A DNA stretch of 64,000 nucleotides from a bacterium (GCA_963675295.2 CAXXKJ010000002.1:3680001-3744000); one strand, 5' to 3'. Positions 8,750 through 31,346 are shown, numbered from the stretch's first letter. Program-made: numbers and translations. The notes: generated by a model from the letters alone, not told the origin.

Positions 8750-11700
8750 TCATGCTTCGCTTAGTACCTCGTTGATGCTTTCGATGAGGGATTTCAGAGT
8801 AATGGGCTTGTTGATAAACCGGATGCCGTCGTCCAGGATACCGTGATAGGAAATGATGTCGTTGTCGTAGCCGGACATGAAGATGACCTTCAACCCTTCG
8901 TTGCGTTCCTTTAACGATTTGTAGAGTTCACTCCCGTTGAGTCCTGGCATGATCACATCCGTCAGCAGCAAATCGATCGTGCTTCCCAGCTCTTTGTAGA
9001 TCTGGATCGCCTTTTCCCCGCTTTCGGCCGGGTAAACGGTGTGCCCCTGGAACTCGAGCATTTTCTTCGTCGTGCTGCGTACATCATCCTGGTCTTCCAC
9101 CAGCAGGATGGCAGCCGACCGCTGTTGACCTGCTGTCTCTGCAGGTGAGTCAACCGGCGTTTCCTGTTCGCCCTCAACCGCAGGGAAGTAAATCTTGAAA
9201 ACGGTTCCGGTACCGGGTTCGCTGTACACCCAGATGTGTCCGTTGTGCTGCTTGACGATACCGTAGACCGTCGACAATCCCAGTCCAGACCCTTGTCCGA
9301 CCTCTTTGGTGGTATAGAACGGATCAAAGATTTTCGCCTGAGTCTCTTCATCCATGCCATCGCCGGTGTCGCTGACGCTGAGCATGGTGTAGGTGCCGGG
9401 TTCAAAGTCAGCATGAGCCACGGCTGACTCACTGTCAAGTTTCACCGTGCTGGTTTCGATCATAATCCGGCCGCCATCCGGCATGGCGTCCTGCGCATTG
9501 ATCAACAGATTCATCAGGATTTGTTCGACCTGGGGCTTGTCCACGCGAATCATCATCACGTTGTCGTCATAGGCGAACTGGAGCTTGATGTCTTCGCGAA
9601 TCGTGCGGCGCAGAATCGTCTCAAATTCCCGGATCAGCCTGTTCAAATTCACCAGCGCAATGCTCAGGACCTGTTTCCGGCTGTACGCGAGGAGCTGCCG
9701 TGTCAGCTCCGCCGCTTTGGTTGCGGTAATGTTGATTTCCCGGATATCTTCATAGATTGGATTGTTTTCATCCATCGACATCATTGCCATTTCGGAGTTT
9801 CCGATGATTGGGGTCAGCAGGTTGTTGAAGTCGTGTGCGATCCCGCCGGCCAGGTGACCAATGGATTCAATCTTCTGGGATTGCAGCAGTTGCCGTTCGA
9901 GTTCCTTCTGGCTCGTGATATCACGCAGGATCCCGAGAATCGCGGTATCGTCACGATAATCAATTTCAGAGACTGACACTTGCACATCATGCTTTGAACC
10001 GTCTTTATGCAACACGGTAAATTCGTACATGTCGGACAAGTGTTCCCCTTTTTCTCTCATTTCAATTCGACTTTTAATCATGGGCCTGTCTTTGGGATCA
10101 ACATAGTCCATAAAGGTAAAATCAGGATCTGATGCATCTTTTGCAGTCACTCCCGTTAACTCTGTAAATTTATGATTGATAATATCAAATTTATTATTGT
10201 AGATAATGTAAATCGCATCATTAGACTGCTCGATAATTGTCCGTAACTTCATTTCGCTTGTTCGTAGCGCAGATTCAATCTGCATACGCTTGGTCACGTC
10301 GCGTACAAATTCCACAACCCCTATGATCTCTCCAGATTCACGGATGATCGGATAACTGAACACTTCAAACCATTCATGCTCTGTCCCGGGAACACCTCGG
10401 ACAATTGCTGTTTCCGTCTTCCTTGATATCATGCACCGTCGTGTCGCACACCCTTCGACTTCGTGCGTTCCATTGAAACAGGTTGCGCAACGTTTACCAG
10501 TCAGGACCGGTTCGTTTTCATACCACTTCTGCATCGTCCCATTGACCCACAACACGGTCAGGTTGGTGTCGAGCACCATGATGCCGTCCTGAATACTCTC
10601 ATAAATGTTGGTCAGGAAGGCTTCGTTATCCTTCAGCCGTTTCTGCAGCTGATATTCCTCGGTAACGTCGCGGAAAACGAGTACGACCCCTTCGAGGCTG
10701 CCATCCATTGCACGGATTGGAGCCGCCGAATCGGCGATTTGATACTCCTTCCCCCCTTTCGCTACCAGCATCGTGTCATTGCTCAATCCGATGATCTCGT
10801 TCTGTTCCAGTACGGCGTGTACCGGATTGTCAGCCGGTTTGCGTGTAATTGCATTGATAATCGTAAAGACGTCTTCCAAAGGCTTACCTTCTGCCGCGGT
10901 CTGCGTCCATCCGGTCAAGGTTTCCGCGACGGGATTCATGCGCGTAACGCGGCCTTCGGTATCCGTCGTGATGACTGCGTCCCCAATCGACATCAACGTA
11001 GTGCGCAGGTTCTGTTCGTTGCGGAACAGCTCCCGCCGGGACTGGTTGGTGCGCACGAGGCCATAGGTAACGCCTACCAGCGCCGTAGCAAGCATCAGGA
11101 ACGCCGCAGCCAGATTCCAGATCAGGGTTTTATACTGGCGGTAAAACGTGACCGGTCCGTAAAGAACTTCGGAGCCGTCCGGAAGTTGGGACTCGGATAT
11201 GTTGAATTTTTTCAGTTGACGGTAATCAAACTGATACGCCGTAGGGGTTTCGTAGCGAACCGGAATATCTCCGGCTGGAGTGCCGGCCAGCACCTCTTTC
11301 GCGATATCCGCAACAGCCAGACCCAGGTCATAGCCGTCCACCAGCAAGCCGCCAACGATGCCGTGTCCGAGTTCGAAATTCCACGTTCCGTAAACTGGCG
11401 CTGCGGAATGATCGCAGATCAACCTGGTTCCCTCATCGAACTCGAAGAACTGGCCCTTGTTGTCACGGGTGAATAAGGTGTGCAGAACGACGGTATTTGG
11501 GGTCAGATTTTCGAGACGGTCAATCAGCTCGTAGATGGTGACGTCGGAGATCTGTTCGATTTCAGGAAGTTCTGCGCCATTTTCGCGCACGATCCGGTCG
11601 ACCTCTTCCTGGATCCGTTTGCCCGTGTTCGTGATATCGGAGATGACCAAAATCCGGTTGACCGCAGGATGTAATTGCTTGATCAGTCTGAAATTATCAA

Positions 11701-18035: not shown

Positions 18036-19085
18036 TCAGTCTTCGGGCGCGGCCGGCAGGTACACGGTGAATGTGCTGCCTTCCCCTTCGGAGCTGTCCA
18101 GATCAACCCACCCGCCGTGCTGTTTCACAATGCTGTGCACATTCGGCAGGCCGAGGCCGGTGCCCTTGCCGGTAGATTTTGTCGTGAAGAACGGTTCGAA
18201 GATGCGATCCTGCACCTCGCGCGGAATCCCAACGCCGGTATCCTTCACCGCGATCAGCAGGTACGTTCCCGGTTCTACGCCGGCCTGCGGAAGTTCACTC
18301 GGTGTCAGGAAATTCCGTCGTTGCACGACAACCGACAGCGTTCCACCCTCGGGCATCGCGTCGCGCGCGTTAACGAACAGGTTGACCAGGACCTGGCTCA
18401 AACGGTTGGCGTCGCCCTTGACTGTCGGCAGGTCCGGTTCCATTTCGGTCTCGACCTGCACCCGTTCCCAGTCCGCGTGGCTGACCAGCGACATGGTTTC
18501 GTCAACCAGGTTCGCAATGTCAAGCGGGTACGGTGTGAATGGCTGCGGTTTGCTGAACGTCAGCAGCCGGTTGATCATCGCGGCACCCTTCTGCGTCGCC
18601 TTGATCACCGATTCGGCCACACTGCGCTGCTTGTCGACCAACGTTTCATCGTTGCGCAACACCAGCGCGTTCCCACGGATGATGGTCAGGATGTTGTTGA
18701 AATCGTGCGCGATCCCTCCCGCGAGGCGCCCGAGCGATTCCATCCGTTGCTGATGGATGTAGCGATCCGTATGCTGCTTGCGACGGCTCATGTCGCTGAT
18801 GTGCACGATGCACGCACTGCCGAATTCCTTGAGGCGAACCCGATACGCTACCAGCTGGACTTCCCGTGGCTTGCTCTTGATCGCGATTTCGGAAATGGAT
18901 TCAAACGTGGGCTGCGCAGCGGTTTCGAGCAACAGGTCAGGCCAGTCACCGGGGAGTTCGTCGTAGACGTGCCCAAGAACCTCGTCCTCTTTGATCCCCG
19001 TCAGGTTGAGCATGCCGCGGTTCCACATCGCAATCCTGCCAGCCGGATCGAGAATGAACGTCGGCAGCAGACCGCTACGCATCAC
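18036..19085 (-). CDS. PAS sensor histidine kinase
   Basis: PAS-like N-terminus; LAGGIAHDFNNIL, NARDAM, DTGVGI, FEPFFTTK, GTGLGL. Confidence 0.9.
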   Translation of the reverse strand: MMRSGLLPTFILDPAGRIAMWNRGMLNLTGIKEDEVLGHVYDELPGDWPDLLLETAAQPTFESISEIAIKSKPREVQLVAYRVRLKEFGSACIVHISDMSRRKQHTDRYIHQQRMESLGRLAGGIAHDFNNILTIIRGNALVLRNDETLVDKQRSVAESVIKATQKGAAMINRLLTFSKPQPFTPYPLDIANLVDETMSLVSHADWERVQVETEMEPDLPTVKGDANRLSQVLVNLFVNARDAMPEGGTLSVVVQRRNFLTPSELPQAGVEPGTYLLIAVKDTGVGIPREVQDRIFEPFFTTKSTGKGTGLGLPNVHSIVKQHGGWVDLDSSEGEGSTFTVYLPAAPED

Positions 19086-19531
19086 CTGGTCGAGGTGTTC
19101 GGAAGATATGGGCAGCAGGTCAGTGATTGTGTTCTCCTGGCCTGTTTGGTGGAAGTTTTGTGTAACGCTGTGTTTGCCAGCCCCGCCGTCGATTCAAGTA
19201 ACGGCGTCCCCTGGGCCGAGTAAAGCACAGCGACCCATGCCATCAGTGCGAATGGAGCCCGTGGATCGGATTGCCCAAAGGTGCATCACTGAGAGGCCCA
19301 ATCGCAAGGTTTGATCGTAGATTCGCGTGTACTATAATTGTCCATTCGCTCGTGGGGAACTCTTCTTGTTGAGTTCGTATTTGGTCCCTTTTGCGAATTT
19401 ATGTTTTTTGGGAAAAGCCGCAACCGTTGGGATTTTAAGGAATTGTACGGTATTAGGCTTCAAGGGAAACAGGTTAAAAATTTGTCGCAATGAGCGAGCG
19501 CGGATTGGACCGTGCTCCGGAGACTCTCGAC

Positions 19532-19861
19532 ATGCAGAAAATGTACTACAGCATCAAGGAGGCGTCTGAGCTACTCGACCTGCCGGCTCATGTGCTCCGG
19601 TATTGGGAAACGGAGTTCAAGGAGTTGAGTCCCCGGAAGAACCGGGGAGGGAACCGAATTTATCGTGAAAATGACATTCAGCTGTTGCATGAACTGAAGG
19701 AATTGCTGCACGAGCGCCGGTTTACCATCGAAGGCGCGCGCAATGAACTGAAACGCCGGCGTTCAGACTCAAGTAGTGAAGACACGGTAGAACAACGATC
19801 ACAGGTACTGCGGGAAGCACGACAGACGATTCGTGAGGTGCTCGAGCTGCTGGACGCGTAA
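19532..19861 (+). CDS. MerR family transcriptional regulator
   Basis: YYSIKEASELLDLPAHVLRYWETEF, NRIYR, FTIEGA; the commonly seen MerR-tRNA-Pro linkage. Confidence 0.9.
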   Translation: MQKMYYSIKEASELLDLPAHVLRYWETEFKELSPRKNRGGNRIYRENDIQLLHELKELLHERRFTIEGARNELKRRRSDSSSEDTVEQRSQVLREARQTIREVLELLDA

Positions 19862-20102
19862 ACGCACGCTCACTGCCACCGTGGTCGCTACGACCCCGCT
19901 GACAGACCGCCTCCCGTATCGCTTGCCCGGTCAACCGGATCGGCCTATCTTCATCGTCGCCTCGCGACGGGCGGGAGAAGTGTCTTCCGGCGGCGGGGTG
20001 ACGTGTTTTGCTGGTGACCGCATGGTGTGAGCGGGTCGATGTGGACGGACTGGCCCGGAATCATGTCGTACACCAATGTACAGTCTGGATGCACAGTCAA
20101 TT

Positions 20103-20176
20103 CGGAGCGTGGCGCAGCCCGGTAGCGCACCTGACTGGGGGTCAGGGGGTCGCTGGTTCAAATCCAGTCGCTCCGA
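20103..20176 (+). tRNA. tRNA-Pro(GGG), CCA not encoded
   Basis: Acceptor CGGAGCG/CGCTCCG; anticodon arm CCTGA-CT GGG GG-TCAGG; T arm GCTGG-TTCAAAT-CCAGT. Confidence 0.96.
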
Positions 20177-20217
20177 CATTGGATAGTAAGGGGTTAGCAG
20201 AAATGCTGATCCCTTTT
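20133..20217 (+). repeat. Left att site: 85-bp direct repeat (tRNA 3' half + terminator)
   Basis: Matches 29946-30030 with 2 mismatches. Confidence 0.93.
20188..20217 (+). terminator. tRNA terminator hairpin (duplicated at 30001-30030)
   Basis: AAGGGGTTAGCA-GAAA-TGCTGATCCCTT followed by Ts. Confidence 0.7.
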
Positions 20218-20223
20218 CTCTGT

Positions 20224-20343
20224 CCATGGGGCACTGGTGGGGCAGAAACCGCCAAAATCCTCAGCTGGTAGCAGCCATTCACCCTCTGCCTTTTTTCCCA
20301 GATTCCTGCATATTTACACGCTGAGTGCCCCGTGAGTGCCCCA
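20224..20343. promoter_or_regulatory. Putative integrase arm-type binding sites (TGGGGCACTCA-like pairs at 20224-20245 and, inverted, at 20322-20343)
   Basis: Same 11-bp-period doublet recurs at 29809-29830 next to the other att site. Confidence 0.55.
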
Positions 20344-20519
20344 CATAAAAAGAGTCTGCCGGAAATCTCAAGATTTATAAGGTTTTCAGCAGGCTGTTCT
20401 TCTGAATACTAATCAGGTGTTGACTTCGTTCGGGGTGTTTGTTGCTTGAGGAGGTTGCTGGTGGGGGTCGTGTTAGACACGGCATGATTTCACCGGCAGC
20501 GAAGCCCGGGAGAGGCACC

Positions 20520-21047
20520 ATGGCGAATATCGAACGCAGGAAAGCGAAAGACGGTTCAACGTCCTACCGTGTGAAGATTCGTCATCAGGGGCACTCTAAC
20601 GAAACAAATACATTCGGCAAGCCGACAGAAGCCCGGGATTGGGCACAGGAAACCGAAGCCAGCATTCAGGCGGGACGGTATCTCCCCTCCATGGAAGCAC
20701 GGAAGCACACCCTTAGCGATCTGGTGGATCGGTACCTCAAGAACGTGATCCCGGAAAAGAAGAGCGGCAAGGATCAGGTGTACCAGCTTGAATGGTGGCG
20801 TGATCGAATCGGAACGTATCCGCTCGCCAGTGTAACGGCTGCTCTGATTTCCGAATGCCGGGACGAATTGAAGCAGAGCGGCAAGAGCAATGCAACGGTA
20901 AATCGGTTCCTTGCCGTGCTAAGCCATGCGTTCACCCTTGCCGAGCGTGAATGGGAGTGGATCGATCAGAACCCGTTCCGCAAAGTGTCCAAGCTGAAAG
21001 AGCCACGAGGGCGCGTACGTTTCCTCCTGCCGGGAATCACCGAATGA
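20520..21047 (+). pseudogene. Tyrosine integrase, N-terminal (arm-binding + core-binding) part only; catalytic domain absent
   Basis: MANIERRK...SYRVKIR...TF...EARDWA, TLSDLVDRYL, SNATVNRFLAVLSHAF, NPFRKV...RVRFL, then stop; no R-H-x-x-R/Y region seen downstream. Confidence 0.8.
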
Positions 21048-21611
21048 CGTTTGACTCATCCGACTTTGCGAGCGCTTTGTATTTCATCCGTGCAACGGTA
21101 TCCGGTCAAATGGACCAGGTGCAAAAAATGATGTTGGTGAGGTGACCGCCAAGGGTACCGACCAGAAAACTCAAGAGCTTAAAGTAGCATTCGGTTCATT
21201 TTGTCGAAATAAACCAACCTGTGCGGTTACGTGGATCGTAGAGGGTGTTTGACCTCAAAAGATAGACTCCGCTAACATTTAGATATTGTTAGCTTTGCCG
21301 AAAAGATGATCGTCACACTAGACTGATGCAAAACCAGTTCCTAAGATTAATTTGACAGAATTGCAGGTTTGGTCGCCTTCAATAATCAGAATCTGACTAG
21401 ACATATAACAATAGTTGTAATTTAGATAGATTCAATGTTGAATGATCGCAGTTAGTGAGAGACAGGATAGGGGGATGAGTATGTCAAGTCTTGCGAATTT
21501 TGATTTTTTGGATTATTTTTAGGCCGATGTCAAGAGATGCAAGTGGTGCTTACTTAGGGGGAAACACCACTTTCCGTGACGCCCCTCCGGGACAACCGAT
21601 GAATTGAGGTT

Positions 21612-22292
21612 GTGGTGGCGCTGCACAATGTAACCAGGTTCTTGGCAATCTGGATGATCGTATCGTTATCGTTTTTGTCCGTGGGTTTTGCATCTGAGAA
21701 ACCCGCGTCGCCAGCCTCTGTTCAACCCAAGGTTCGCCCTCAACAGCCAGTTTCTGAACGGATGAAACTCAATTCGTCCGAATGGTCGCAGCCCTCTCTG
21801 CAGCTCCACGCTCGCACCCTGCCGGACAGCCTCGATGTTCAACGCGGAAAGCAGGATCAGGGGAAGAGTATCAGCACTGGCGTCCCGACCTTCGATTTCG
21901 AGATTCAGACGGATCCGGTGATCTACTACGAGGTCCCCGGCGCACCCGGCGAATACCAGGGCCAGCAACCGATCCACCTTCAGATCACCAGCAACGCGAG
22001 CCAGTTTGAGCTTGACGATATCACCTGGCGTCTTCACTGCCGGATGGACTCGCTCCGTTCGTCTGACGACACATTCGACCTTGAACGCTTCCAGGTACGT
22101 GTCGCAGGCCAGGGGGAGTATGCACCGTTGAGCCAACCGCTGGTAGTGTTGCAGCAGACGGGAATGCAGAATCCACAGCAGGTGGATTTAGATGTGAAAT
22201 TCCTCGTCAGCCTGGGGGATCGTGCCGGAGATTACAACGGCGGGTTGACGTTTGAGCTTGAGTTGGTGGATGAAGTAGTGGAAGTTGAGTAG
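21612..22292 (+). CDS. Secreted pilin/Ig-like subunit 0 (putative minor subunit)
   Basis: Signal peptide; LQITSN motif and C-terminal AGDYNGGLTFEL strand shared with the downstream paralogs. Confidence 0.6.
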   Translation: MVALHNVTRFLAIWMIVSLSFLSVGFASEKPASPASVQPKVRPQQPVSERMKLNSSEWSQPSLQLHARTLPDSLDVQRGKQDQGKSISTGVPTFDFEIQTDPVIYYEVPGAPGEYQGQQPIHLQITSNASQFELDDITWRLHCRMDSLRSSDDTFDLERFQVRVAGQGEYAPLSQPLVVLQQTGMQNPQQVDLDVKFLVSLGDRAGDYNGGLTFELELVDEVVEVE

Positions 22293-22344
22293 GCAGGACA
22301 ATTGATCGCGGCGAAGTGTCCGCGAGCCGTAAAGACATGAATAT

Positions 22345-22429
22345 GGGCCGGTCTCCAGCCGCCAAAGCGAAGAACCGGCCCACACGGGCACCCCAGAAGA
22401 AGGGTATGGCACCGTTTCGTCTAAACTAA
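22345..22429 (+). repeat. Degenerate orphan copy of the cassette leader, followed by a 7-codon ORF
   Basis: GGGCCGGT...AGCCGCCA...ACCGGCCC stem-loop, CACACGG, CCCCAGAAGAAGG, then ATG...TAA. Confidence 0.55.
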
Positions 22430-22604
22430 CTGTAGCCGGGCGGTCAGGTCAAGCAGTTTCTATCAGCGCTGTTAGACAAGCGTGCTATGGCCGGAACATC
22501 GCCCACACCCGGAAGGCTGCAGTATGGCGATACGGTGCCCGGGCCCGTGATACTGATGAGGTTTGAGTTTTATAACGAAGCCGTTCATTGACAAGACACA
22601 CGCC

Positions 22605-22792
22605 GTTGCCCGAGCCGCCAGCTCATATGCCGGGCCACGTTGTGAAACAAAACAGAAATCGGTCAGGGAAGGCCGATGAATCGGTCACCGGTCAGATTTG
22701 ACCGGGGCAACCCCAGAAAAAGGAGAAGGATGATGAAGAAGCTCATGTTGATCGCCATTGCGATGCTCGTCGCGGTGGGCGCATTCGCGCAG
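22605..22792 (+). repeat. Cassette leader + signal-peptide repeat, copy 1
   Basis: TGCCCGAGCCGCCA...CCGGGC...AATCGGTC..GGCCGAT...CACCGGT...CCCAGAARAAGGAGAAGGATGATGAAGAA...GCGCAG. Confidence 0.9.
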
Positions 22793-23212
22793 AACGACCT
22801 TGGGAATCCCGAAGCGATCGCTGACGTAACTCTCGCGATTTCCCCATATGCTGAAGTTAGCTCTTTGTACCCAACGATTGGCTATCAGACGAATTTCCAT
22901 GGTGCCTCGTTGCCCTTGGATATTCCTGTGGTCGGTGGTGTAACCATCAGCACCAACGACGACGTTACAGCCACGGTTGCCTTTGAAGCACTGAACATGA
23001 ACCTGACAGTTTGGGACGCGCTTGTCTTTACCGGTTTGTTCGACGATGATTCCGCCAGCAAATCGTTCATTAACGGAGTGCACAATCCGGGCGTGAAGCT
23101 GCACATGGACTACACCCAGGCATACAACGACGGCTCGGTTACCTGGACCGATATCCCCGCTGAAAATCTTGGAACGGTTGGTTCGATTGTTGTTACGGTG
23201 ACGAGCAATTAA
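22730..23212 (+). CDS. Secreted pilin/Ig-like subunit 1
   Basis: MMKKLMLIAIAMLVAVGAFA-Q signal; ADVTLAISPYAEV; ISTN; C-terminal GSIVVTVTSN. Confidence 0.75.
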   Translation: MMKKLMLIAIAMLVAVGAFAQNDLGNPEAIADVTLAISPYAEVSSLYPTIGYQTNFHGASLPLDIPVVGGVTISTNDDVTATVAFEALNMNLTVWDALVFTGLFDDDSASKSFINGVHNPGVKLHMDYTQAYNDGSVTWTDIPAENLGTVGSIVVTVTSN

Positions 23213-23233
23213 AGACTTGTTGCGATAGACTGG

Positions 23234-23279
23234 CATGCTCTGCTGAACCTAGGCCCCGCAGAAACTTCAGCAGAGCATG
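23234..23279 (+). terminator. 14-bp hairpin between subunits 1 and 2
   Basis: CATGCTCTGCTGAA...TTCAGCAGAGCATG followed by TTTG. Confidence 0.6.
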
Positions 23280-23300
23280 TTTGAATTTGTGCAGTTGAAC

Positions 23301-23479
23301 GTTGCCCGAGCCGCCAGCTCAATAGCCGGGCAGAAGCTTGAAGTAACAATCGGTCGTTGCCGGCCGATCACACGGCCACCGGTAAAGAGGCCGGGAGACC
23401 CAGAAGAAGGAGAAGGATGATGAAGAAGCTTATACTGATCGCTCTCGCGATGCTCGTCGCGGTGGGCGCGTTTGCGCAA
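23301..23479 (+). repeat. Cassette leader + signal-peptide repeat, copy 2
   Basis: Same conserved blocks as copy 1; linker nearly identical to copy 3. Confidence 0.9.
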
Positions 23480-23854
23480 ATGACAGCAGACAAAGACGTT
23501 ACCCTTACGATCTTACCGTATGCACAGGTGACGGCACCTCCCGCAGCAATTGAACTGGAGTATGATCCGGCATGGGGATTCTCCGACTGGGCTTTGGGCG
23601 GAAACGCTTATAGTTGGAGCATTGACACAAACTTTGACATCGACGCCACGATGACGTATACGGACAATGGTGTCACTGGTGTCACGATTACCAATGCCGG
23701 CTTCTTCCTGAACCCGGGCGTACAGCAGGTGCTGTCCCTTACGGCGGGTCAACATCAGTACGGAACATTTGTTGATCTCGACATCGTCGATTGGACACCT
23801 GCGGCTGAGGATCTTGCCATCGGCACGCTCACTGTGACGCTTTCCGCTCAGTGA
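23417..23854 (+). CDS. Secreted pilin/Ig-like subunit 2
   Basis: MMKKLILIALAMLVAVGAFA-Q; KDVTLTILPYAQV; IDTN; GTLTVTLSAQ. Confidence 0.75.
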   Translation: MMKKLILIALAMLVAVGAFAQMTADKDVTLTILPYAQVTAPPAAIELEYDPAWGFSDWALGGNAYSWSIDTNFDIDATMTYTDNGVTGVTITNAGFFLNPGVQQVLSLTAGQHQYGTFVDLDIVDWTPAAEDLAIGTLTVTLSAQ

Positions 23855-23861
23855 AAAAATG

Positions 23862-23899
23862 CACTCAACCCGGCATCTAATAGGATGCCGGGTTGAGTG
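23862..23899. terminator. 16-bp perfect hairpin between subunits 2 and 3
   Basis: CACTCAACCCGGCATC-taatag-GATGCCGGGTTGAGTG. Confidence 0.6.
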
Positions 23900-23904
23900 A
23901 CTTA

Positions 23905-24081
23905 TGCCCGAGCCGCCAGCTCAATAGCCGGGCATAAGCTTGAAGTAACAATCGGTCGTTGCCGGCCGATCACACGAGCACCGGTCCAAGACCGGGGTAC
24001 CCCAGAAGAAGGAGCAGGATGATGAAGAAGCTTATGCTGATCGCTCTCGCGATGCTCGTCGCGGTGGGCGCGTTTGCGCAG
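23905..24081 (+). repeat. Cassette leader + signal-peptide repeat, copy 3
   Basis: Same conserved blocks. Confidence 0.9.
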
Positions 24082-24474
24082 CCGTACCAAGCCAATACCC
24101 TTCCGTTGGATGTTAACCTTACCATCAGTCCCTATGCAGAGCTTGCCTGGGTTACGGGCCAAGCTCCATTGGCGCTTGTATTGGAGCATCCTACCTGGTC
24201 GGACAACGAAACTGCGTATTTTAATTGCGCTTCCAACTTTGGCTTCATCATTGCGCAGACCTTGTCCGCGCCTTGGGGATCGGGATTTATGTCTGGAGCG
24301 TCGGTCGATCCTAACAATGATTTCGGGTTAAATGACGGTAACGGTGATGCCGGCAGTTACACCAACGTACCTGTAAGAGTAACTGCCATGATCTCCGGTT
24401 CGTATGAATGGTATGAAAAACAAGAGGGTAACTACGGAAACGGCACCCTTACGTTGACGATTATCCAGCAGTGA
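24019..24474 (+). CDS. Secreted pilin/Ig-like subunit 3
   Basis: MMKKLMLIALAMLVAVGAFA-Q; LDVNLTISPYAEL; CASN; GNYGNGTLTLTIIQQ. Confidence 0.75.
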   Translation: MMKKLMLIALAMLVAVGAFAQPYQANTLPLDVNLTISPYAELAWVTGQAPLALVLEHPTWSDNETAYFNCASNFGFIIAQTLSAPWGSGFMSGASVDPNNDFGLNDGNGDAGSYTNVPVRVTAMISGSYEWYEKQEGNYGNGTLTLTIIQQ

Positions 24475-24571
24475 GTTAGCCAGTCATTTTTTTCGTGGAA
24501 GATTGACAAGCCGTTCAGGTCCAGAAGTATTAATACGGAATAGCGACAGCGGCTGTAGAAGACAGGAAAAC

Positions 24572-24606
24572 ACATTCACGGAGCCTGAACCTGGCTCCGT
24601 GAATGT
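24572..24606. other. 14-bp perfect hairpin immediately 5' of leader copy 4
   Basis: ACATTCACGGAGCC-tgaacct-GGCTCCGTGAATGT. Confidence 0.65.
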
Positions 24607-24610
24607 CCAC

Positions 24611-24790
24611 TGCCCGAGCCGCCAAAAGGATACGCCGGGCAGCTAGGTCTAGAAGAAAATCGGTCAGGGAAGGCCGATCACACGGCCACCGGTCCAAAGA
24701 CCGTGGTACCCCAGAAGAAGGAGAAGGATGATGAAGAAACTTATGTTGATTGCTCTCGCGATGCTCGTCGCGGTGGGCGCGTTTGCGCAG
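24611..24790 (+). repeat. Cassette leader + signal-peptide repeat, copy 4
   Basis: Same conserved blocks. Confidence 0.9.
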
Positions 24791-25213
24791 CCGCCTGATT
24801 TCCAAGAAACGATTGACGTTTCGGTCACTATTGATTCGTATTGCTCTTTCTCCCTGGATGATGGTAGCCTGAGCATTGCGATGACTGGTGGCGATACGGA
24901 AGAGGAATCGGGTGTGATTCAGGGTTCATTCGCCAGCAACGACATGGCTATGCTTGTCTTTTCGTACGAGGGTTTAGGGACAGATTACATGACGAACGTA
25001 GCTGGGTATTCCTGGTTGCGGTATTTTGATGCAACAGTTGGGACTGTGTATGCTGGCTATAATGTCGGTCTCAATGAATTTATGAACTATCCGCTGATTA
25101 ACACGGAATCCAGAGACTTTACAGTCGGCATTAAAGTTTCAATGCCACAGTTTACGGATATTCCGGCTGGCACGTATTCAGAAGTTCTTGTAGTGTCAGT
25201 TTATTGCCTGTAA
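24728..25213 (+). CDS. Secreted pilin/Ig-like subunit 4
   Basis: MMKKLMLIALAMLVAVGAFA-Q; IDVSVTIDSYCSF; FASN; AGTYSEVLVVSVYCL. Confidence 0.75.
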   Translation: MMKKLMLIALAMLVAVGAFAQPPDFQETIDVSVTIDSYCSFSLDDGSLSIAMTGGDTEEESGVIQGSFASNDMAMLVFSYEGLGTDYMTNVAGYSWLRYFDATVGTVYAGYNVGLNEFMNYPLINTESRDFTVGIKVSMPQFTDIPAGTYSEVLVVSVYCL

Positions 25214-25289
25214 TGATGTGGCGCAGCAAGTATTGATCGCTACAGATTGAACCCTCCACAGAGCATTGGTCTTGCTTCGTGGAAGCATG

Positions 25290-25474
25290 GTTGCCCGAGC
25301 CGCCAGCTCACATGCCGGGCGATGGACTGAAACGAAACAGAAATCGGTCAGGGAAGGCCGATCACACGGCCACCGGTCCAAAGGCCGGGGTACCCCAGAA
25401 GAAGGAGAAGGATGATGAAGAAGCTTATGCTGATCGCTCTCGCGATGCTCGTCGCGGTGGGCGCGTTTGCGCAG
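25290..25474 (+). repeat. Cassette leader + signal-peptide repeat, copy 5
   Basis: Same conserved blocks; linker similar to copy 1. Confidence 0.9.
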
Positions 25475-25864
25475 TCGGATGCTAACGATGTCGCAGATCT
25501 GATTGTCACTATCGAACCGTACGCCTACGTTGAAGTGACTTCGGATGCTGTTGGTGTGACAATTACGCCACCAAATTGGGTGGCGACTTCTGAAGATCCC
25601 ATCGTTTTTAATTGCTGTGCAAACTACGGTTACTATCTCGAATACACAGCCAATAGCATGATAGCGAACCCATACTACATCTTTGTGTCACCTGTTGATC
25701 CAACTCTCGCAGCTTACGACGTAACTTCTGGTGAGCACATTGGCTTGGAGCTATATGCTCAGGTAGAGGTCTGGGATCAGGAGGGTTACCAGAATCCGTA
25801 TGATGTGCCGTTTGGTGAGTACACAGGCATGAACATAAACGTGCAGATCTATCCTGCGCCTTAA
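25412..25864 (+). CDS. Secreted pilin/Ig-like subunit 5
   Basis: MMKKLMLIALAMLVAVGAFA-Q; ADLIVTIEPYAYV; CCAN; GEYTGMNINVQIY. Confidence 0.75.
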   Translation: MMKKLMLIALAMLVAVGAFAQSDANDVADLIVTIEPYAYVEVTSDAVGVTITPPNWVATSEDPIVFNCCANYGYYLEYTANSMIANPYYIFVSPVDPTLAAYDVTSGEHIGLELYAQVEVWDQEGYQNPYDVPFGEYTGMNINVQIYPAP

Positions 25865-25891
25865 GGTTACATAACCATTGATAGGAAAGAC

Positions 25892-26392
25892 ATGAAGCCA
25901 ACACTGGCTGTATTTATCGTTTTACTGCTGTTGTTGACTACAGCGGGTTACAGCCAGACGGACACGGCAAGCATTCCCGTGAATCTGACCATCGAGCCGT
26001 ATACGGAAATCGATATCGCAAACGATATCATCATGACAACCGTGGAAGGCTGGTGGTTCAGTTCCGGGATGGAGATGGAAAGTGTTGGATCGACCAGTGT
26101 GCAGGTTGGAACCAACACCAACGCGACCCTTGTCTGTCCGGCGACCTTGGATATGCAGTTGATCGATCCTCCGGGACCGGAGATTATGACAGTGCGGACG
26201 GCTGTTTCCTACATGTACCCCGGGCACCCGCAGTATTATGCCCAGGGCGGGCAAGTCATCTGCATTGATCTCGAACCGGGCCTGCACACGGCGATCTCAC
26301 TTGAGGCATCGTTGTCGAAGGTGTGGAACGTCGGTGAGGATCTGGCTGGCACGTACCAGGGGACATTGACAGTGACTGTCACAGAGAACTAG
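25892..26392 (+). CDS. Secreted pilin/Ig-like subunit 6 (own signal peptide, no leader repeat)
   Basis: IPVNLTIEPYTEI; VGTN; AGTYQGTLTVTVTEN. Confidence 0.75.
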   Translation: MKPTLAVFIVLLLLLTTAGYSQTDTASIPVNLTIEPYTEIDIANDIIMTTVEGWWFSSGMEMESVGSTSVQVGTNTNATLVCPATLDMQLIDPPGPEIMTVRTAVSYMYPGHPQYYAQGGQVICIDLEPGLHTAISLEASLSKVWNVGEDLAGTYQGTLTVTVTEN

Positions 26393-26423
26393 TTTGTGGC
26401 CTCGCTGTTGAACTTTGTAACGG

Positions 26424-26454
26424 GTGAAAAGCCGGAGATCCTCCGGCTTTTCAC
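26424..26454. terminator. Hairpin/terminator separating subunit genes from assembly genes
   Basis: GTGAAAAGCCGGAG-atc-CTCCGGCTTTTCAC. Confidence 0.7.
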
Positions 26455-26480
26455 TCGATTGATCTCATTGTGAGGACGTC

Positions 26481-28100
26481 ATGCGTACCATTCTGATCAC
26501 ACTTTTGGTGATTTCTGCATTCATGGTCTGTGATTCCGTCCAGGCTCAGGGCTTCATGGTTAAACCGATGCGAATCGAGATGGCCGGGACTCCCGGGCAG
26601 CAGGTGCAGGTCGACCTCCAGATCAACAACACCAGTGCGGACAAGGCACCGGAAGTCCTGGTTGGGAAATGGTACCTCGATCAGGGAAATAACGGCAGCT
26701 ATCAGCCGTTGGCGACGGATGAAGTACCGTCTGAGCGCAAACAAATGATGCAGAGTTGTTTCGACTGGATGACGGTATCGGAAAACACTCTGATCGTACC
26801 ACCCCTGCAACAGGGACTAGTCACGGTTTCTGTGCGTATTCCCAGTGATGCAACGGGTACTTATTCTGCGCTACTGACGGTTGAAAATGTCCCGGAACGC
26901 CGCCCCGGAACCATTGGGATGGTGATGCGGTTCGTAGTCCCCGTAATTGTCGATGTGCGTGGCCGTTCCGCTCGCACGGAAATCGATCTTGCAGGCGTCT
27001 CGCTGAACTACGTGGAGTCAGAACAGAATGCGTCAGGAGAAAGTACACCCGCCGTGGACAACCTGCACGTTTCTGTCGCCAATGAAGGCAAGATTCGTGG
27101 TAAAGTCAGCGGTGATGTGACCATCTTGCGCAAGGCCGGCACGGGCTGGCGCCAGGTGACGGTTGTGGAATTCCCTGAGAAGACGGTCATGCCCGGAACG
27201 AGCTGGGATTTCGTGCAACCTTCCCCGCGCAGATTGGCAAGCGGCACCTACCGGCTGAGCACGAATTTCCTGCTGGATGGCCGGAAGATGCGTCCAATGA
27301 ATGAGATCGTTGAATACAAAGGTGATCCGTCGGTGACGACGGTGCAGGAAGATGTTTCGTTAATGATCGAGCCGCGTGTGGCTGAGATCGAGGGTGTACC
27401 GGGCGCGCGCCGCACGGCTCGCATTCGAATCCAGAATCCCAGCGAACAGCAGCTTTCTGTCAGTATCAGCAGCATGACGCCGAAAACATTGCAGGGCGTG
27501 GCAATGGGTGACGTAAAGGGCGAGGAGTATGCTTGTAACGAATGGCTGAATCCGAATCCGGCTGAGTTTACCCTTCGTGGTGGCGGCGAACGTACGGTGG
27601 CTGTCAGAGTCAGTTTTCCCGAAGAAAATTCGGACAAACCCTTCCATTATGGCAGTCTGGTGATTACGGCCACCTATGCAAACGGCGAAACCGCCAGTTC
27701 GGAAGAGGTGCTCGTGGTGGCGAAAAACCGTGAACTGGAAGCGGCACCGCACTTGTATCCGTACACGGTTTCAATCTCGCAGGTTGAGGGCAAGCAGTAC
27801 GCCGTGTCTGGTAAGTTTGGCAATGTCGGCAACGTGCACCTCTACCCTACCTGCCGGGCAACGTTATCCAATACGTCCGGCACACAGGTTTTCAAGCAGG
27901 CCGATCTGAATGCCGACATGGATCTTGTGTTGCCAATGGGTACACCGGTTTACAACGGCGTGCTTGACCTGGACGGTGTTAATGACGGCACGTACAAGCT
28001 GACGGTGGCTGCAACGTACGGTGAGCATGTGGCGAATAAGGATCTCGCGCTGCGTGTGACTACGAATGGCAACGGCAAGCAGGTTGAAGTGCTTGACTGA
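26481..28100 (+). CDS. Secreted protein with two tandem PapD/EcpB-like (DUF916-like) chaperone-type modules
   Basis: Signal peptide; module 1 FMVKPMRIEM...QINNTS...WMTV...LIVPPLQQGLVTVSVRIP; module 2 LMIEPRVAEI...RIQNPS...WLNPNPAEFTLRGGGERTVAVRV; each followed by an Ig domain with NEGK/NVGN. Confidence 0.6.
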   Translation: MRTILITLLVISAFMVCDSVQAQGFMVKPMRIEMAGTPGQQVQVDLQINNTSADKAPEVLVGKWYLDQGNNGSYQPLATDEVPSERKQMMQSCFDWMTVSENTLIVPPLQQGLVTVSVRIPSDATGTYSALLTVENVPERRPGTIGMVMRFVVPVIVDVRGRSARTEIDLAGVSLNYVESEQNASGESTPAVDNLHVSVANEGKIRGKVSGDVTILRKAGTGWRQVTVVEFPEKTVMPGTSWDFVQPSPRRLASGTYRLSTNFLLDGRKMRPMNEIVEYKGDPSVTTVQEDVSLMIEPRVAEIEGVPGARRTARIRIQNPSEQQLSVSISSMTPKTLQGVAMGDVKGEEYACNEWLNPNPAEFTLRGGGERTVAVRVSFPEENSDKPFHYGSLVITATYANGETASSEEVLVVAKNRELEAAPHLYPYTVSISQVEGKQYAVSGKFGNVGNVHLYPTCRATLSNTSGTQVFKQADLNADMDLVLPMGTPVYNGVLDLDGVNDGTYKLTVAATYGEHVANKDLALRVTTNGNGKQVEVLD

Positions 28101-28149
28101 CGTCTCCCGACAACCTCCTCACTATCGTTTTGAGCAAAGGGATGCTGTG

Positions 28150-29772
28150 ATGCGTGTTATCCGATATGCCTTGCTTTCTCTCGCGCTGATCGTACTTTTT
28201 TCAGGATGTACGGCGAACAAGCAGTTTGACGAACGGCTGGCTGTTCCGCAGCAGCAGGCGAACGAGATTGACTTCGCGTTGGAAACGGTGGCAAATGCGC
28301 ACCAGGCGCAGAACTACCAGCGCATGGTGGATGTGCTCAAGGATGTTGTCGCGAACGGGTATGTGTATCACCGTGCGGATGAAATCCTGTATTGGATCGG
28401 GGTGGCGCGGGTGAACATGCTGCATGCCGATCAGGCGATGCAGGCGTTTGCCACGCTCCGTGACTACTATCCGTGGATTGAGGGCAAGTACCCGGACCTC
28501 GTTGAATGGGAGGAGTTGGCCCAACGGATGATACGCGATCGACAGGAGGCTGCCAGCGATGCGGACGAGATTATCAATTCGCTGGACGATTCCGCCTGGT
28601 CGGACGACGGTACGCCGCTGGTGTCAAACTCGTTCTTCGATTCCGATCTTCGGATGGTGCTCGCAGATTTAACAGCAGACACAGGTGTCCGCATTATCGC
28701 CGACCCGCAGGTCAGCGGATTTGTGACGGCTGATTTTTACGATGTACCGCTGGAAGAGGTACTGGAGCAAATCCTGCTGCCGAATGGGTTCACTTACCGC
28801 AACATGGGCGACTACTATCTCGTTGGGGATGCATCAACAAGCAGCCCGTCTTTCGCTACGATGTCTGAAACACGTCGATTCCCGCTTCGCTACCTCCGCA
28901 CCAGCCAGCTCGAGGCATTGTTGCCCGACGTCTTCATTGATTATGTCCGTTTTGACCATACCTCGAATACGATTACGATCACCGCCTCGCCGATCATGGT
29001 TGATCGGTTGAGTATCATCCTTGACGAAATCGACGTCCTCCCCACCCAGTTCCTGATCGAGGTGGAAGTGCTCGAGATGAGCAAGGAGCTTGAACGTTCG
29101 CTGGGGCTGAACTGGGATTTTATCGGAACAAAGAGCGATCAGAGCTTTGTCTTTTCGCAGCTGGCGCCGGATTCTCTGGTGGCGTCTCTGCTCGGTGAGG
29201 TCATCGCAACAGGCGAATCAGGACCGGAAGGGTTTACTGTTGACCGTCGCACCGCCATTAACGCGTTGGCGGACAATGGGCTGGTGAAGGTACTGGCCAA
29301 TCCCCGCCTGAGCACGCAACAGGGACAGGCCGCGACAATCCGTGTCGGAAAGGAAGCCTACTTCAACCTGCTGGGTAATTCTGGGACCTATATCACGTCG
29401 AATGCGCTGGAGAAGATCTCCACCGGTGTCACGCTCAGCATTGTCCCGTTCCGCGGAGAAAATGCGCAGATCACCACCGATCTGGATGTGGAAGTCAGTG
29501 ATGTCCTTGATCCTGGAACTGGTGGATTGCCTGTAACCAGCGTACGCCAGGTAACCACACGGTCTACGGTTGCTAATGGCAATACGCTTGGTGTTGGTGG
29601 ATTGTTGCTTGAGAACGACCGGAAGAGCCGAAGCGGAATTCCAGGACTGAGTGAAATTCCTGTTCTTGGGTATCTCTTCGGTCAAACGACGACAGAATCT
29701 GTCACCACCGAGGTGGTTATCCTGATTACACCACATGTTCTCTTGCCGCCAGATTTGTTTCGAGATCTCTGA
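28150..29772 (+). CDS. Secretin (GspD/PilQ family) with N-terminal lipoprotein signal and TPR segment
   Basis: LFSG-C lipobox; TPR (ADEILYWIG...FATLRDYYP); N0-like DSDLRMVLADL...IIADPQVSG; KVLANPRLST, TGVTLSIVP, GIPGLSEIPVLGYLF, EVVILITPHV. Confidence 0.88.
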   Translation: MRVIRYALLSLALIVLFSGCTANKQFDERLAVPQQQANEIDFALETVANAHQAQNYQRMVDVLKDVVANGYVYHRADEILYWIGVARVNMLHADQAMQAFATLRDYYPWIEGKYPDLVEWEELAQRMIRDRQEAASDADEIINSLDDSAWSDDGTPLVSNSFFDSDLRMVLADLTADTGVRIIADPQVSGFVTADFYDVPLEEVLEQILLPNGFTYRNMGDYYLVGDASTSSPSFATMSETRRFPLRYLRTSQLEALLPDVFIDYVRFDHTSNTITITASPIMVDRLSIILDEIDVLPTQFLIEVEVLEMSKELERSLGLNWDFIGTKSDQSFVFSQLAPDSLVASLLGEVIATGESGPEGFTVDRRTAINALADNGLVKVLANPRLSTQQGQAATIRVGKEAYFNLLGNSGTYITSNALEKISTGVTLSIVPFRGENAQITTDLDVEVSDVLDPGTGGLPVTSVRQVTTRSTVANGNTLGVGGLLLENDRKSRSGIPGLSEIPVLGYLFGQTTTESVTTEVVILITPHVLLPPDLFRDL

Positions 29773-29808
29773 TACACACTCGATCTAACAACGCAGCTGC
29801 TACTAATT

Positions 29809-29830
29809 CCATGGGGCACTCATGGGGCAG
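29809..29830. promoter_or_regulatory. Putative integrase arm-type site doublet near right att
   Basis: CCATGGGGCACTCATGGGGCAG, compare CCATGGGGCACTGGTGGGGCAG at 20224. Confidence 0.55.
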
Positions 29831-29945
29831 TGTCCCCAAGAAATCCCCGTAAATCACAATAACATGAGGCAGGAGATAACCGGCTATCTAGCAATTATTC
29901 CTATCGTTAACGCTTGTAGAGTGTTGTGATTGTTGCGCTGGATAG

Positions 29946-30030
29946 GACTGGGGGTCAGGGGGTCGCTGGTTCAAATCCAGTCGCTCCGACACTGGAAAGT
30001 AAGGGGTTAGCAGAAATGCTGATCCCTTTT
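29946..30030 (+). repeat. Right att site: displaced 3' half of tRNA-Pro + terminator
   Basis: 85-bp copy of 20133-20217; tRNA 5' half absent. Confidence 0.93.
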
Positions 30031-30122
30031 TTTCGATTCGGTAGATTGGCAGAAATTTTTTCGCAGAAACAGCGAGCCACAAGGTGTTATACAAATTCTA
30101 TCGGCGCTATGACCTGGAGAAG

Positions 30123-31346
30123 CTACTCTGATCTTAAGGCAGTGATTGGAAATAGCAACGAAGCCCGGCGGGCCGGGTAGATACCTGAGATTAATCCAAG
30201 TGACAGGGATACCAGCAGCGCCAGGGCGAGGTAGTCCAAGGGTACCACAGTGTGCCATTGTGTTGTCAATCCGATGATTAGTGCTCCCGAAACGCCTAAG
30301 GCGACGCCGATCGCTCCCCCTGCGAAGCCTTGAAGCAGGGCTTCAATCAGAAATTGAATCAGTATATCTCTACGTCGCGCACCTACCGCCATCCGTAAAC
30401 CGATTTCGATCTTCCTTTCTCCGACCGCAATCCACATGATCGCCAATATGCCAATCCCTCCAACCAGCAGCGATACAGCAGCGATAGCAGAAATCAGCAG
30501 TGTAAAGGATTCCGACGTGTCTTTTTCGGCTTCGATTGTTGTGAGTTGATTCTGAATGCTGAAATCATCGGGGCGGTCCCTTAGAACCAGTTGGTGGCTT
30601 TCACGCAGTACATGTCGGATCTGTTTTTCGGTGCTGTACATGGCATCTTGATCAGTCGCTTGAACATAGATGGTACTCAGGTGATTCAGGTTGAAAACTC
30701 GGCGTAGTGCTGTGCTTAAGGGAATCAGGATCTGATCGTCTTCATTGGAACCTTCAGCCGTGATTCCCCGAGGCTTCAGGACGCCGATAACCTCGAATGG
30801 GATCCTTTCAATTCGTATGATTTCGCCGATTGCATTCATTGATCCAAATAAATCCGTAGCGACTCCAGCCCCCAGTACGGCCACTCGCCTAGCGGCCTTT
30901 TCTTCGTCATGGGTAAAGAAATCACCGGTAATAATGCTGGCGTTTCGAATCAGCTGGTACTCGGGAGTTGTGCCAAGGACCTTCGTTTGCAATGAACTCC
31001 TTCCATACCGGACTTCCAGTCGTTTGTACTGGGCAGGCGCTACTCGGACCACAGAGGGGCATTTAGCGAGAATCGCCGCACTGTCTGATCGTTTCAGTGT
31101 CACGATCTCAGTGTTTGCAAAACGGCTGTTTCCAAAAACCTGGGTGGGTTCTGCGCTAACCACCAGCAGATTGGTACCCATTTCCCGAATCAAACGCAAG
31201 ACTTCAGATTGTGCACCTTGTCCAATCGAAACCATCACAATTACGGCGCTGACCCCAACAGTTATCCCCGACAGGGCTAACGCGGTTCGGAGCTTATTTG
31301 CAAACAGTGTTCGACGAGTGATCAGGATGTTGCGAACGAACTTCAT
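30123..31346 (-). CDS. MacB-like ABC transporter permease
   Basis: LRTALALSGITVGV, SLLVGGIGILAIM, ERKIEIGLRMAVGA, QFLIEA, GIYPARRAS. Confidence 0.92.
   Translation of the reverse strand: MKFVRNILITRRTLFANKLRTALALSGITVGVSAVIVMVSIGQGAQSEVLRLIREMGTNLLVVSAEPTQVFGNSRFANTEIVTLKRSDSAAILAKCPSVVRVAPAQYKRLEVRYGRSSLQTKVLGTTPEYQLIRNASIITGDFFTHDEEKAARRVAVLGAGVATDLFGSMNAIGEIIRIERIPFEVIGVLKPRGITAEGSNEDDQILIPLSTALRRVFNLNHLSTIYVQATDQDAMYSTEKQIRHVLRESHQLVLRDRPDDFSIQNQLTTIEAEKDTSESFTLLISAIAAVSLLVGGIGILAIMWIAVGERKIEIGLRMAVGARRRDILIQFLIEALLQGFAGGAIGVALGVSGALIIGLTTQWHTVVPLDYLALALLVSLSLGLISGIYPARRASLLFPITALRSE

Follow-up and report, generated by a model that had tools for sequence, protein, structure and literature searches.

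Organization of the array

The stretch of bacterial DNA analyzed here comprises 64,000 nucleotides (nt; GCA_963675295.2 CAXXKJ010000002.1:3680001-3744000, hereafter the window, with positions counted from its first nucleotide) and contains a tandem array of five paralogous genes for small exported proteins, followed by the genes of a sixth related protein, of a chaperone-like exported protein of 539 amino acids and of a secretin. We consider it rather likely that the array encodes variable subunits of a surface fibre that is made by this chaperone and this secretin. The five units lie head-to-tail on the plus strand, with a spacing of 600-700 bp between the direct repeats, and each is composed of a leader of 114-125 nt, a 63-nt block that encodes MMKKL(M/I)LIA(L/I)AMLVAVGAFAQ in all five cases, and a mature part of 124-140 codons. 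Cassette 1 (22605..23212; 160 amino acids) has its leader at 22605-22729 and its signal-peptide block at 22730-22792, with the mature part running to the stop at 23212. In cassette 2 (23301..23854; 145 amino acids), the leader covers 23301-23416, the signal-peptide block 23417-23479, and the mature part extends to 23854; in cassette 3 (23905..24474; 151 amino acids), the corresponding borders are 23905-24018, 24019-24081 and 24474; in cassette 4 (24611..25213; 161 amino acids), they are 24611-24727, 24728-24790 and 25213; and in cassette 5 (25290..25864; 150 amino acids), they are 25290-25411, 25412-25474 and 25864. Each cassette is a complete gene with its own ribosome-binding site, its own start codon (at 22730, 23417, 24019, 24728 and 25412, respectively) and its own signal peptide, and all have the same orientation. 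The five units with a conserved leader and near-identical signal-peptide coding, as described in a first-pass annotation of the window, are thus present, with a constant 5' block of about 180 nt.

Directly downstream lies a sixth subunit gene (25892-26392, plus strand; 166 amino acids), which aligns with the five cassettes and has its own signal peptide, but lacks the shared leader. It represents the subunit type that is best kept across other loci, and most of the distant profile matches that were fetched resemble it. Upstream of the array, a degraded leader-like remnant is recognizable at about 22345-22412 on the plus strand by collinear short exact matches to the leaders (10 and 14 nt), which would be marginal if taken alone. 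It consists of a hairpin with a different stem whose loop contains a 10-mer of the cassette-4 leader, followed by the ACCCCAGAAGAAGG stretch and by a frame of 7 codons that opens with an ATG and runs into a stop. It may be the relic of a lost cassette.

Within the 4.8-Mb host genome, the leader occurs at these five places alone, with a second search adding one 22-nt match (expectation value E=0.009), and neither the repeat scan nor the search of the host genome revealed an inverted copy; all copies are direct repeats. Other bodies behind the same leader, which the first-pass annotation had envisaged in related genomes, were not found, the leader being detected in 0 of the 40 related genomes searched. 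The five short matches detected there span 22-62 nt, and one of them covers the ribosome-binding site and signal peptide of an unrelated 489-residue protein in the relative G027. In the sequencing runs X1-X3, which derive from one sample, the unitigs end at the leaders, as is usual for repeats, and every unique body is recovered in independent unitigs with 0 differences and a uniform depth of about 80-86. An origin of the array by misassembly was therefore rejected. In run X4, which comes from a second sample of the same study, parts of the locus are not covered. Its record 28, a 1060-nt contig of a depth above that of the rest of the locus, fits 22304-22754 exactly and continues with about 600 nt upstream of 22304 that are unlike the window. 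Another strain may thus have other sequence next to the first leader.

A constant 5' block with an abrupt end

In all 10 pairwise comparisons, the identity is 0.72-0.89 for the leaders and 0.86-1.00 for the signal-peptide blocks, and it is 0.51-0.55 for the DNA of the mature parts, whose proteins are 20-39% identical over aligned positions. As the leaderless sixth gene scores 0.48-0.54 against the five cassettes with the same aligner, unrelated sequence has a baseline of about 0.5 here. The last invariant alignment columns are GCGCA(G/A) in codon 21, directly after the AFA motif that we read as the predicted signal-peptidase cleavage site, and behind these columns the identity falls to the baseline in a step and not in a slope. 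This agrees with the earlier statement that the similarity ends at GCGCAG/GCGCAA, and the sparseness of shared motifs in the mature regions was also correctly noted, since only the N- and C-terminal strands are well kept. The mosaic linkers that had been described correspond to the loop of the second leader hairpin, which is of one type in copies 2 and 3 and of another type in copies 1, 4 and 5.

What keeps the 5' block so constant? Where two cassettes share a residue that has synonymous codons, their codon choice agrees in 132 of 166 cases in the signal peptide (80%), whereas this holds for only 109 of 311 cases in the mature part (35%); the pairs are not independent, and the P value of this comparison is therefore overstated. 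Protein-level selection alone consequently does not explain the constant block, which appears to be kept alike at the DNA level, be it by gene conversion, by selection on nucleotides, or by both. Moreover, the informative sites support incompatible partitions of the five units (u1 to u5), namely u2,u3|u1,u4,u5 in the 5' half, u1,u2|u3,u4,u5 around the third hairpin, and u1,u4|u2,u3,u5 in the signal peptide, with some of these sites falling at gapped alignment positions. Among the ten pairs, u1-u5 ranks second in leader similarity (0.84), yet last in mature identity (20%) and third from the bottom in alignment score (20), and in the pair u3-u5 the signal-peptide bases are identical at 63 of 63 positions with leaders that are 0.80 identical. 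The similarity of the leaders thus does not track that of the mature parts. Such a pattern is given by patchy gene conversion, and nucleotide selection is possible alongside.

Leader hairpins and intergenic stem-loops

The consensus fold of the leaders as calculated with RNAalifold contains three hairpins. In hairpins 1 and 2, the stems are invariant and all differences are confined to the loops, which can be taken as a hint of selection for these stems. When the predicted pairs are examined in the individual leaders, 90.6% of the cells are paired, in comparison to 23-45% when the partners are slid. An Rfam search of positions 19000-31000 at E<=1 returned a tRNA and one chance-level match only, and no known RNA family covers the leader.

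Unique stem-loops are found between the genes. A 14-bp stem-loop that was read from the sequence follows cassette 1 (23234..23279, plus strand), and a scan for terminator-like structures detected a 16-bp stem-loop after cassette 2 (23862..23899, listed on the minus strand) and a 14-bp stem-loop after cassette 3 (24572..24606). The stem-loop after cassette 4 is weaker. A further stem-loop of about 13-14 bp, again read from the sequence, lies between the subunit genes and the assembly genes (26424..26454, plus strand).

The subunit proteins

The five cassette proteins, the product of the sixth gene and two proteins of a syntenic locus in the related genome G009 form one family of eight aligned sequences. 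Only two of its parts are well kept, namely an N-terminal alternating hydrophobic strand just past the signal peptide, D-V-x-L-x-I-x-P-Y, and the C-terminal strand G-x-L-x-V-T-V. When 1.84 billion representative proteins were searched with the profile, 44 matched at E<=0.001, and a word-indexed protein search with the subunit alignment gave 3. Judged from these searches, the subunit family is rare, unnamed and largely missed by annotation. One protein of 1545 residues, P0006, contains 18 separate stretches that match the C-terminal third of the subunit profile (E 5e-27), and it may be a repeat protein built from the strand-rich C-terminal segment of the subunit.

For the mature part of cassette 2, AlphaFold2 predicts an all-beta sandwich with a predicted local distance difference test score (pLDDT) of 71.8 and a predicted template modelling score (pTM) of 0.59. 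The best Foldseek match of this model is CfaB (E 1.7e-3), followed by the PapG pilin domain and by FimF/FimG. The VIA comparison lists the PapG pilin domain with a Z score of 7.7, CfaB and Pyrodictium cannulae with 7.2 each, and CS17, CsuE, CooA and the FimH pilin domain with 6.9-7.1. The match list is dominated by one kind of protein, the donor-strand pilins, and the alignments with pilin domains begin at about model residue 12, which places the conserved N-terminal strand outside the core. The model therefore points, albeit weakly, to the fold of donor-strand pilins as known from chaperone-usher pili, and we regard this as a lead.

The chaperone-like protein, the secretin and the head gene

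The subunit genes are followed by a gene for an exported protein of 539 amino acids (26481..28100, plus strand), which has a signal peptide and, in the AlphaFold2 model (pLDDT 87.6), four beta-sandwich domains. Its best VIA match is the WxLIP protein of E. faecium (9i1y_A) with a Z score of 17.7 and a root-mean-square deviation (rmsd) of 5.1 over 241 of 267 residues, covering model residues 23-285, and the next row of the list lies 3.9 Z units lower. Foldseek also finds 9i1y_A (E 2.9e-9), the only one of the long alignments in its list to have a low rmsd (5.1 A). The classical two-domain pilus chaperones YadV, SafB, CupB2, CfaA, CsuC, FimC, EcpB, FaeE and PapD align to one or the other half of the model (23-285 and about 290-522) with VIA Z scores of 11.2-13.0, and both halves have such matches. 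The evidence from sequence profiles is weak, but of the same direction: WxLIP_PGBD is matched at E<=0.01 by 6 of 17 homologues, and a comparison of the 539-residue protein with EfmWxLIP1 of the PDB gives E 0.2. There is no membrane helix in its translation, the C-terminal region included. On the basis of the model, we read this protein as two tandem PapD/WxLIP-like chaperone modules.

The next gene encodes a secretin (28066..29772, plus strand) with Pfam matches to Secretin (5.3e-37, above the family cut-off), STN (1.1e-7) and Secretin_N (1.9e-4). A TPR-like N-terminal part precedes the STN/N0, Secretin_N and Secretin domains, and all NCBIfam models of secretin subtypes remain far below their cut-offs. 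The true start is likely the Met codon at about 28150, ahead of a lipobox LFSGC, and this internal Met together with the LFSGC suggests that the secretin is a lipoprotein. In six related loci of the kind described below, a lipoprotein-like gene for about 120 amino acids is located 3' of the secretin (L026 7468-7830, L075 5443-5805, L077 3065-3436, L079 3251-3616, L080 11014-11406, L082 11003-11371), and its product may be a pilotin. The locus in the window has no such gene, and its secretin carries its own lipobox and the TPR-like N-terminal part. A Pfam scan of the island genes detected no usher, no ATPase and no platform protein, and the island encodes no prepilin peptidase.

At the head of the cluster, an exported protein of 226 amino acids is encoded (21612..22292, plus strand), whose homologues occupy the equivalent place in metagenome loci and in G009. 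Its match to the subunit family profile is weak (hhalign probability 30%, E 5e-4), and it is possibly a further, i.e. tip or minor, subunit.

Related loci in other lineages

Members of the family of the 539-residue protein were detected in 37 loci from metagenomes and in 14 from genomes, the titles of the records naming Verrucomicrobiota, Armatimonadota, Alphaproteobacteria, Planctomycetota and Desulfuromonadales. The metagenome matches are 29-44% identical over the best segment, and 29-36% where most of the protein is spanned. A near-invariant QGFMVKPM marks the start of the family. One to eight subunit-like genes are present upstream, and the gene adjacent to or downstream of the chaperone-like gene encodes a secretin in 10 of 10 cases tested.

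The combination of a constant 5' region with a divergent body was detected in two further, unrelated lineages, and most of the other compared pairs do not have it. In L046, genes 2 and 3 are 0.85 identical over the upstream 120 nt, 0.80 over the first 63 nt and 0.52 over the next 120 nt, and the corresponding values for genes 2 and 3 of L050 are 0.72, 0.74 and 0.49. The leaders of other loci start with GC-rich hairpins that are kept between paralogs. A short GC hairpin of the form GGCACGCG(C)GTGCC, with a purine-rich ribosome-binding site behind it, is shared by leaders of subunit genes in the metagenome loci L046 (about 850-870 and 1665-1685), L048 (about 1230-1250) and L050 (about 935-955), and it may be a conserved leader element of that clade.

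In L038, the similarity between the subunit genes runs through the whole genes. This locus has 7 tandem subunit genes (2916-6444), and the locus L071, whose record title names an uncultured Armatimonadia bacterium, has 8 (3658-7663). The flanks of the two arrays are 94.5-95.9% identical. Seven orthologous pairs have 90-97% protein identity, and one gene of L071 has no partner above 78%. As the two arrays differ by one cassette at a flank identity of about 95%, such arrays evidently gain or lose cassettes on a short time scale. Similarity in the L038 and L071 arrays was also observed to span the signal peptide and the first ~20 mature residues.

The incompatible site partitions, the discordance of leaders and mature parts, and this one-cassette difference are in keeping with leaders that recombine or convert one another and with whole cassettes being gained or lost. 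The earlier suggestion that the leader serves as a homology handle is partly supported by the codon likeness, the incompatible partitions and the difference between the related arrays, but a rearrangement of the array in the window itself was not seen. The role in phage-receptor or adhesion variation that had also been suggested is a guess.

The genomic island and the host genome

The presumed fibre cluster is situated inside a 9.8-kb island at a tRNA-Pro (GGG) gene (20103..20177, plus strand; detected by ARAGORN, and with 61.7 bits by the Rfam tRNA model), which is the integration site. The left 85-nt direct repeat (20133..20217) comprises the 3' half of the tRNA and downstream bases and is 98% identical to the right copy (29946..30030), which marks the island boundary. 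A truncated tyrosine-integrase gene (20439..21047, plus strand) encodes the N-terminal domains only (Pfam Int_N 3.1e-10), and its homology to a 91% identical paralog (G000:C2:3167112-3167933) ends at 21026, while the paralog reads on past the equivalent position. Other recombinase domains are not encoded by the island genes or by the scanned flanking genes. Directly past the integrase break, a stretch of about 120 nt (21027-21145) has at least 15 weaker copies of 68-80% identity on both genome contigs and resembles a small dispersed repeat element. In each of the runs X1-X3, one contig (depth 91) joins 21026 to 29812 and thereby skips 8785 bases, with several differences on both sides. This joint is not explained by the paralogous integrase locus of the host, and it may represent a relative, or a second site, in which the fibre cluster is missing.

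In the genome G001 of the same genus, a MerR gene and the tRNA-Pro gene are kept, and the downstream genes are different. Among the 40 related genomes, a full-length relative of the 539-residue protein is encoded only in G009 (35% identity). Nine further relatives have weaker matches, as does another locus of the host genome. These may be paralogs, and the host locus, the sole one examined, indeed is. Because of the island setting and the patchy presence in relatives, the cluster looks horizontally acquired. The second, distant locus of the same kind in the host genome (L025, G000:C2:156000-172000, locus 5775-10973, minus strand) has genes for a secretin of 540 amino acids, a 238-residue protein, a four-domain protein of 544 residues and a 227-residue protein. 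It is flanked by two regulators that have a winged-helix activator-like region in common, and a similar regulator is encoded beside the G009 locus.

A possible mechanism of fibre assembly and array evolution

How could such a cluster function? Each cassette would be a self-contained expression and export unit that combines three leader hairpins, a purine-rich ribosome-binding site, a Sec signal peptide common to all, a mature domain and, in cassettes 1-3, a unique 3' stem-loop. The subunits, with the products of the five cassettes probably being the major subunits of the fibre, would be exported via the Sec pathway and then held in the periplasm by the tandem PapD/WxLIP-like chaperone. Donor-strand exchange would join them, and the outer membrane would be crossed via the dedicated lipoprotein secretin in place of a classical usher. 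By analogy with the chaperone of the Elr pilus (see below), a doubled periplasmic chaperone and a secretin conduit could suffice for assembly. The terminal strands needed for a donor-strand polymer would be kept while the exposed bodies diverge, and as both terminal strands are retained, the five proteins should fit one and the same machine with different surfaces. Gene conversion among the copies would homogenize the 5' block of about 180 nt, with selection for the same expression and export signals probably adding to this, and the direct repeats would make the array prone to unequal crossover, by which whole cassettes are gained or lost. Donor-strand polymerization, chaperone binding, passage through the secretin, a function of the hairpins and a benefit of the diversity are all inferred.

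Several observations weigh against this interpretation. As for the leaders, the covariation is not significant, since a score as high as theirs arises in 47 of 500 shuffles, and their folding is no better than that of shuffled sequence (z -0.56 and -0.14). Sigma-70-like promoters were not detected in the leaders, and promoters and terminators are no more numerous than in shuffled sequence, so that each cassette may have its own promoter or the array may be one processed transcript. With the present data, gene conversion is inseparable from nucleotide-level selection on the block. Joints between leaders, as they would result from the alternative cassette orders or numbers for which the first-pass annotation had suggested a read check, are absent from the contigs of 4 runs of one study, with contigs being blind to rare variants. 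In case of the proteins, the subunits match no Pfam or NCBIfam family at or above the cut-off, the models of the other four cassette subunits have a pLDDT of 40.6-53.2 only, and all fold matches of the cassette 2 model have Z scores below 8, which is “middling” by the tool's own scale. The 539-residue protein reaches 20.1 bits with Pfam WxLIP_PGBD, for which the cut-off is 27.3, and none of the PapD families of Pfam is matched at E<=1.

What other explanations could account for the data? The constant block might be kept by function alone, as a cis-acting expression module in a static array that does not recombine. It could then contain a promoter or operator, a hairpin that stabilizes the 5' end, a site at which a regulatory RNA or protein acts, and a translation-initiation region that extends into the signal-peptide codons. 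The invariant stems with their loop-only differences and the high fraction of paired cells would agree with this, as would the conserved GC-rich hairpins at the start of the leaders of other loci. However, neither the covariation nor the folding energy speaks for a selected structure, and a purely functional constraint leaves unexplained why the informative sites support incompatible partitions and why u3 and u5 have the same 63 signal-peptide bases behind leaders that are only 80% identical. Moreover, the cassette difference between the close relatives L038 and L071 shows that such arrays do change. A static module without any recombination is thus rather unlikely.

A second alternative concerns the proteins. 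The small proteins could be soluble cargo or pieces of a surface layer that are exported by the secretin, and the 539-residue protein could be a scaffold or a cell-surface protein with immunoglobulin-like repeats instead of a chaperone. The middling fold matches of the subunit are compatible with this, neither an usher nor an ATPase is encoded at the locus, and PapD-like/MSP/ASH domains also occur in non-chaperones, with ciliary and centrosomal proteins being among the matches. On the other hand, the best matches of both partners come from one kind of system, as the subunit resembles donor-strand pilins and both halves of the larger protein resemble two-domain pilus chaperones. The distance of the WxLIP match from the next row and its coverage also speak for a chaperone, and the only well-kept parts of the subunits are the alternating strands at both termini. 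In our opinion, an export of cargo or surface-layer proteins is quite improbable.

Third, the array could undergo a programmed phase or antigenic variation like the vsp and vpma genes of Mycoplasma, in which case a site-specific recombinase would act at a 5' site and one cassette would be expressed at a time. The layout is indeed the same, as a conserved 5' untranslated region and signal peptide precede unrelated mature parts also in these families, according to the respective study (PMC2268961), and a fragment of a tyrosine-recombinase gene is found 1.6 kb upstream. Yet all five genes are co-oriented and equipped with a ribosome-binding site, start codon and signal peptide, and inverted leader copies are absent. 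The integrase, which is a part of the tRNA-Pro island, is cut at 21026, before most of the continuing frame of its paralog, the genes scanned in the island and its flanks yielded no further recombinase domain, and the lack of leader joints in the contigs argues weakly in the same direction. Programmed switching of the array is therefore unlikely, and a system of the complete vsp/vpma type is hardly probable at all. Readings as an integron cassette array, a diversity-generating retroelement or a CRISPR-like array were rejected, since the cassettes are paralogous to each other, coding sequence is part of the repeat, and no IntI, reverse transcriptase or Cas domain was detected in the scanned genes, among which the sole integrase is the phage-type fragment (Int_N and arm-binding domains).

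We thus prefer to regard the array as a set of variable-subunit genes of a fibre that is assembled by a chaperone and a secretin, and the system to which the array belongs is of more interest than the array itself. Known donor-strand pili depend either on an usher, as in Gram-negative bacteria, or on a membrane-anchored DUF916 chaperone together with a sortase, as in Bacillota. It is conceivable, although somewhat short of likely, that the cluster represents an unrecognized usher-less pathway of pilus assembly in bacteria with an outer membrane, which employs a doubled WxLIP/PapD-like chaperone, donor-strand exchange and a secretin, which is distantly related to the WxL/Elr pilus and has spread horizontally and patchily over at least six phyla, and in which the genes of the major subunits repeatedly evolved as recombining cassette arrays with one leader. 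A literature search, whose coverage did not include subscription journals, brought up no account of a secretin that is paired with a DUF916-like or PapD-like chaperone. If the proposal is true, a WxLIP/PapD-like chaperone with a secretin would constitute a third route of donor-strand pilus assembly, would link the chaperone families of Gram-positive with those of Gram-negative bacteria, and would add a new class of substrates for secretins. The array is also a clean natural case of a concerted evolution that is limited to the expression and export module while the exposed bodies diversify, recurring in independent lineages, and it permits testing how bacteria vary the surface of a fibre and keep it compatible with the assembly machine.

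Comparison with known systems

The chaperone-usher pili (Pap, Fim, CFA/I, Csu) share with the system of the window small Sec-exported subunits, as the predicted beta-sandwich of the cassette 2 model best matches their pilins. They also have several paralogous subunit genes per locus and periplasmic two-domain chaperones, which both halves of the 539-residue model resemble in fold. The main difference is the secretin that is encoded here instead of an usher. Furthermore, two chaperone modules are combined in one chain of 539 residues, no PapD or fimbrial Pfam family is matched, and the subunit paralogs have a leader in common that is alike on the DNA level.

The WxL/Elr pilus of Enterococcus faecalis, which consists of WxL pilins and has the DUF916/DUF3324 chaperone ElrE, is the other closely comparable system, since WxLIP is the best structural match of the 539-residue protein. 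According to a preprint on this system, the DUF916-type chaperone alone primes and nucleates the donor-strand polymerization of WxL pilins, with no usher being involved, and the system was detected in Bacillota only (10.64898/2026.10.17.759780). In contrast, the system described here occurs in organisms that have outer-membrane secretins, the 539-residue protein is doubled and lacks a C-terminal membrane helix, and no WxL family is among the Pfam matches of the six subunits at E<=1. The translated island proteins do not have the LPxTG-type C-terminus that is a feature of the WxL/Elr pilus, and a secretin is encoded instead. The machine thus resembles both chaperone-usher and WxL pili, yet it lacks a defining feature of each, as there is no usher, no WxL domain and no sortase anchor.

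With the secretin machines, i.e. type II secretion systems and type IV and Tad pili, the system has in common a secretin with N0/STN, N1 and secretin domains, and self-piloting secretins are lipoproteins, like the predicted lipoprotein secretin of the window. The difference is that the ATPase, the platform protein and the prepilin peptidase are missing from the genes of the island, to which this comparison refers, and that the Sec signal peptides of the subunits are of the AXA type, in place of the leaders of prepilins.

As to the array, the vsp and vpma families of Mycoplasma bovis and M. agalactiae are alike in that the 5' untranslated region and the signal-peptide coding sequence are conserved in all family members (PMC2268961), while the mature parts are unrelated. 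These families switch by the site-specific recombinase Xer1 at 5' sites, whereas the array of the window consists of co-oriented complete genes with no intact recombinase. The lpl cluster of S. aureus is likewise a tandem cluster of paralogs in a genomic island with a highly conserved stretch in each copy. According to the study by Tsuru and Kobayashi (2008, PMC2568036), this conserved DNA stretch is a site of homologous recombination that shuffles the variable parts and changes the copy number. In lpl, the conserved stretch is central in the gene, whereas it comprises the leader and the signal peptide in the array described here, and the would-be unit of exchange is therefore the whole mature domain.

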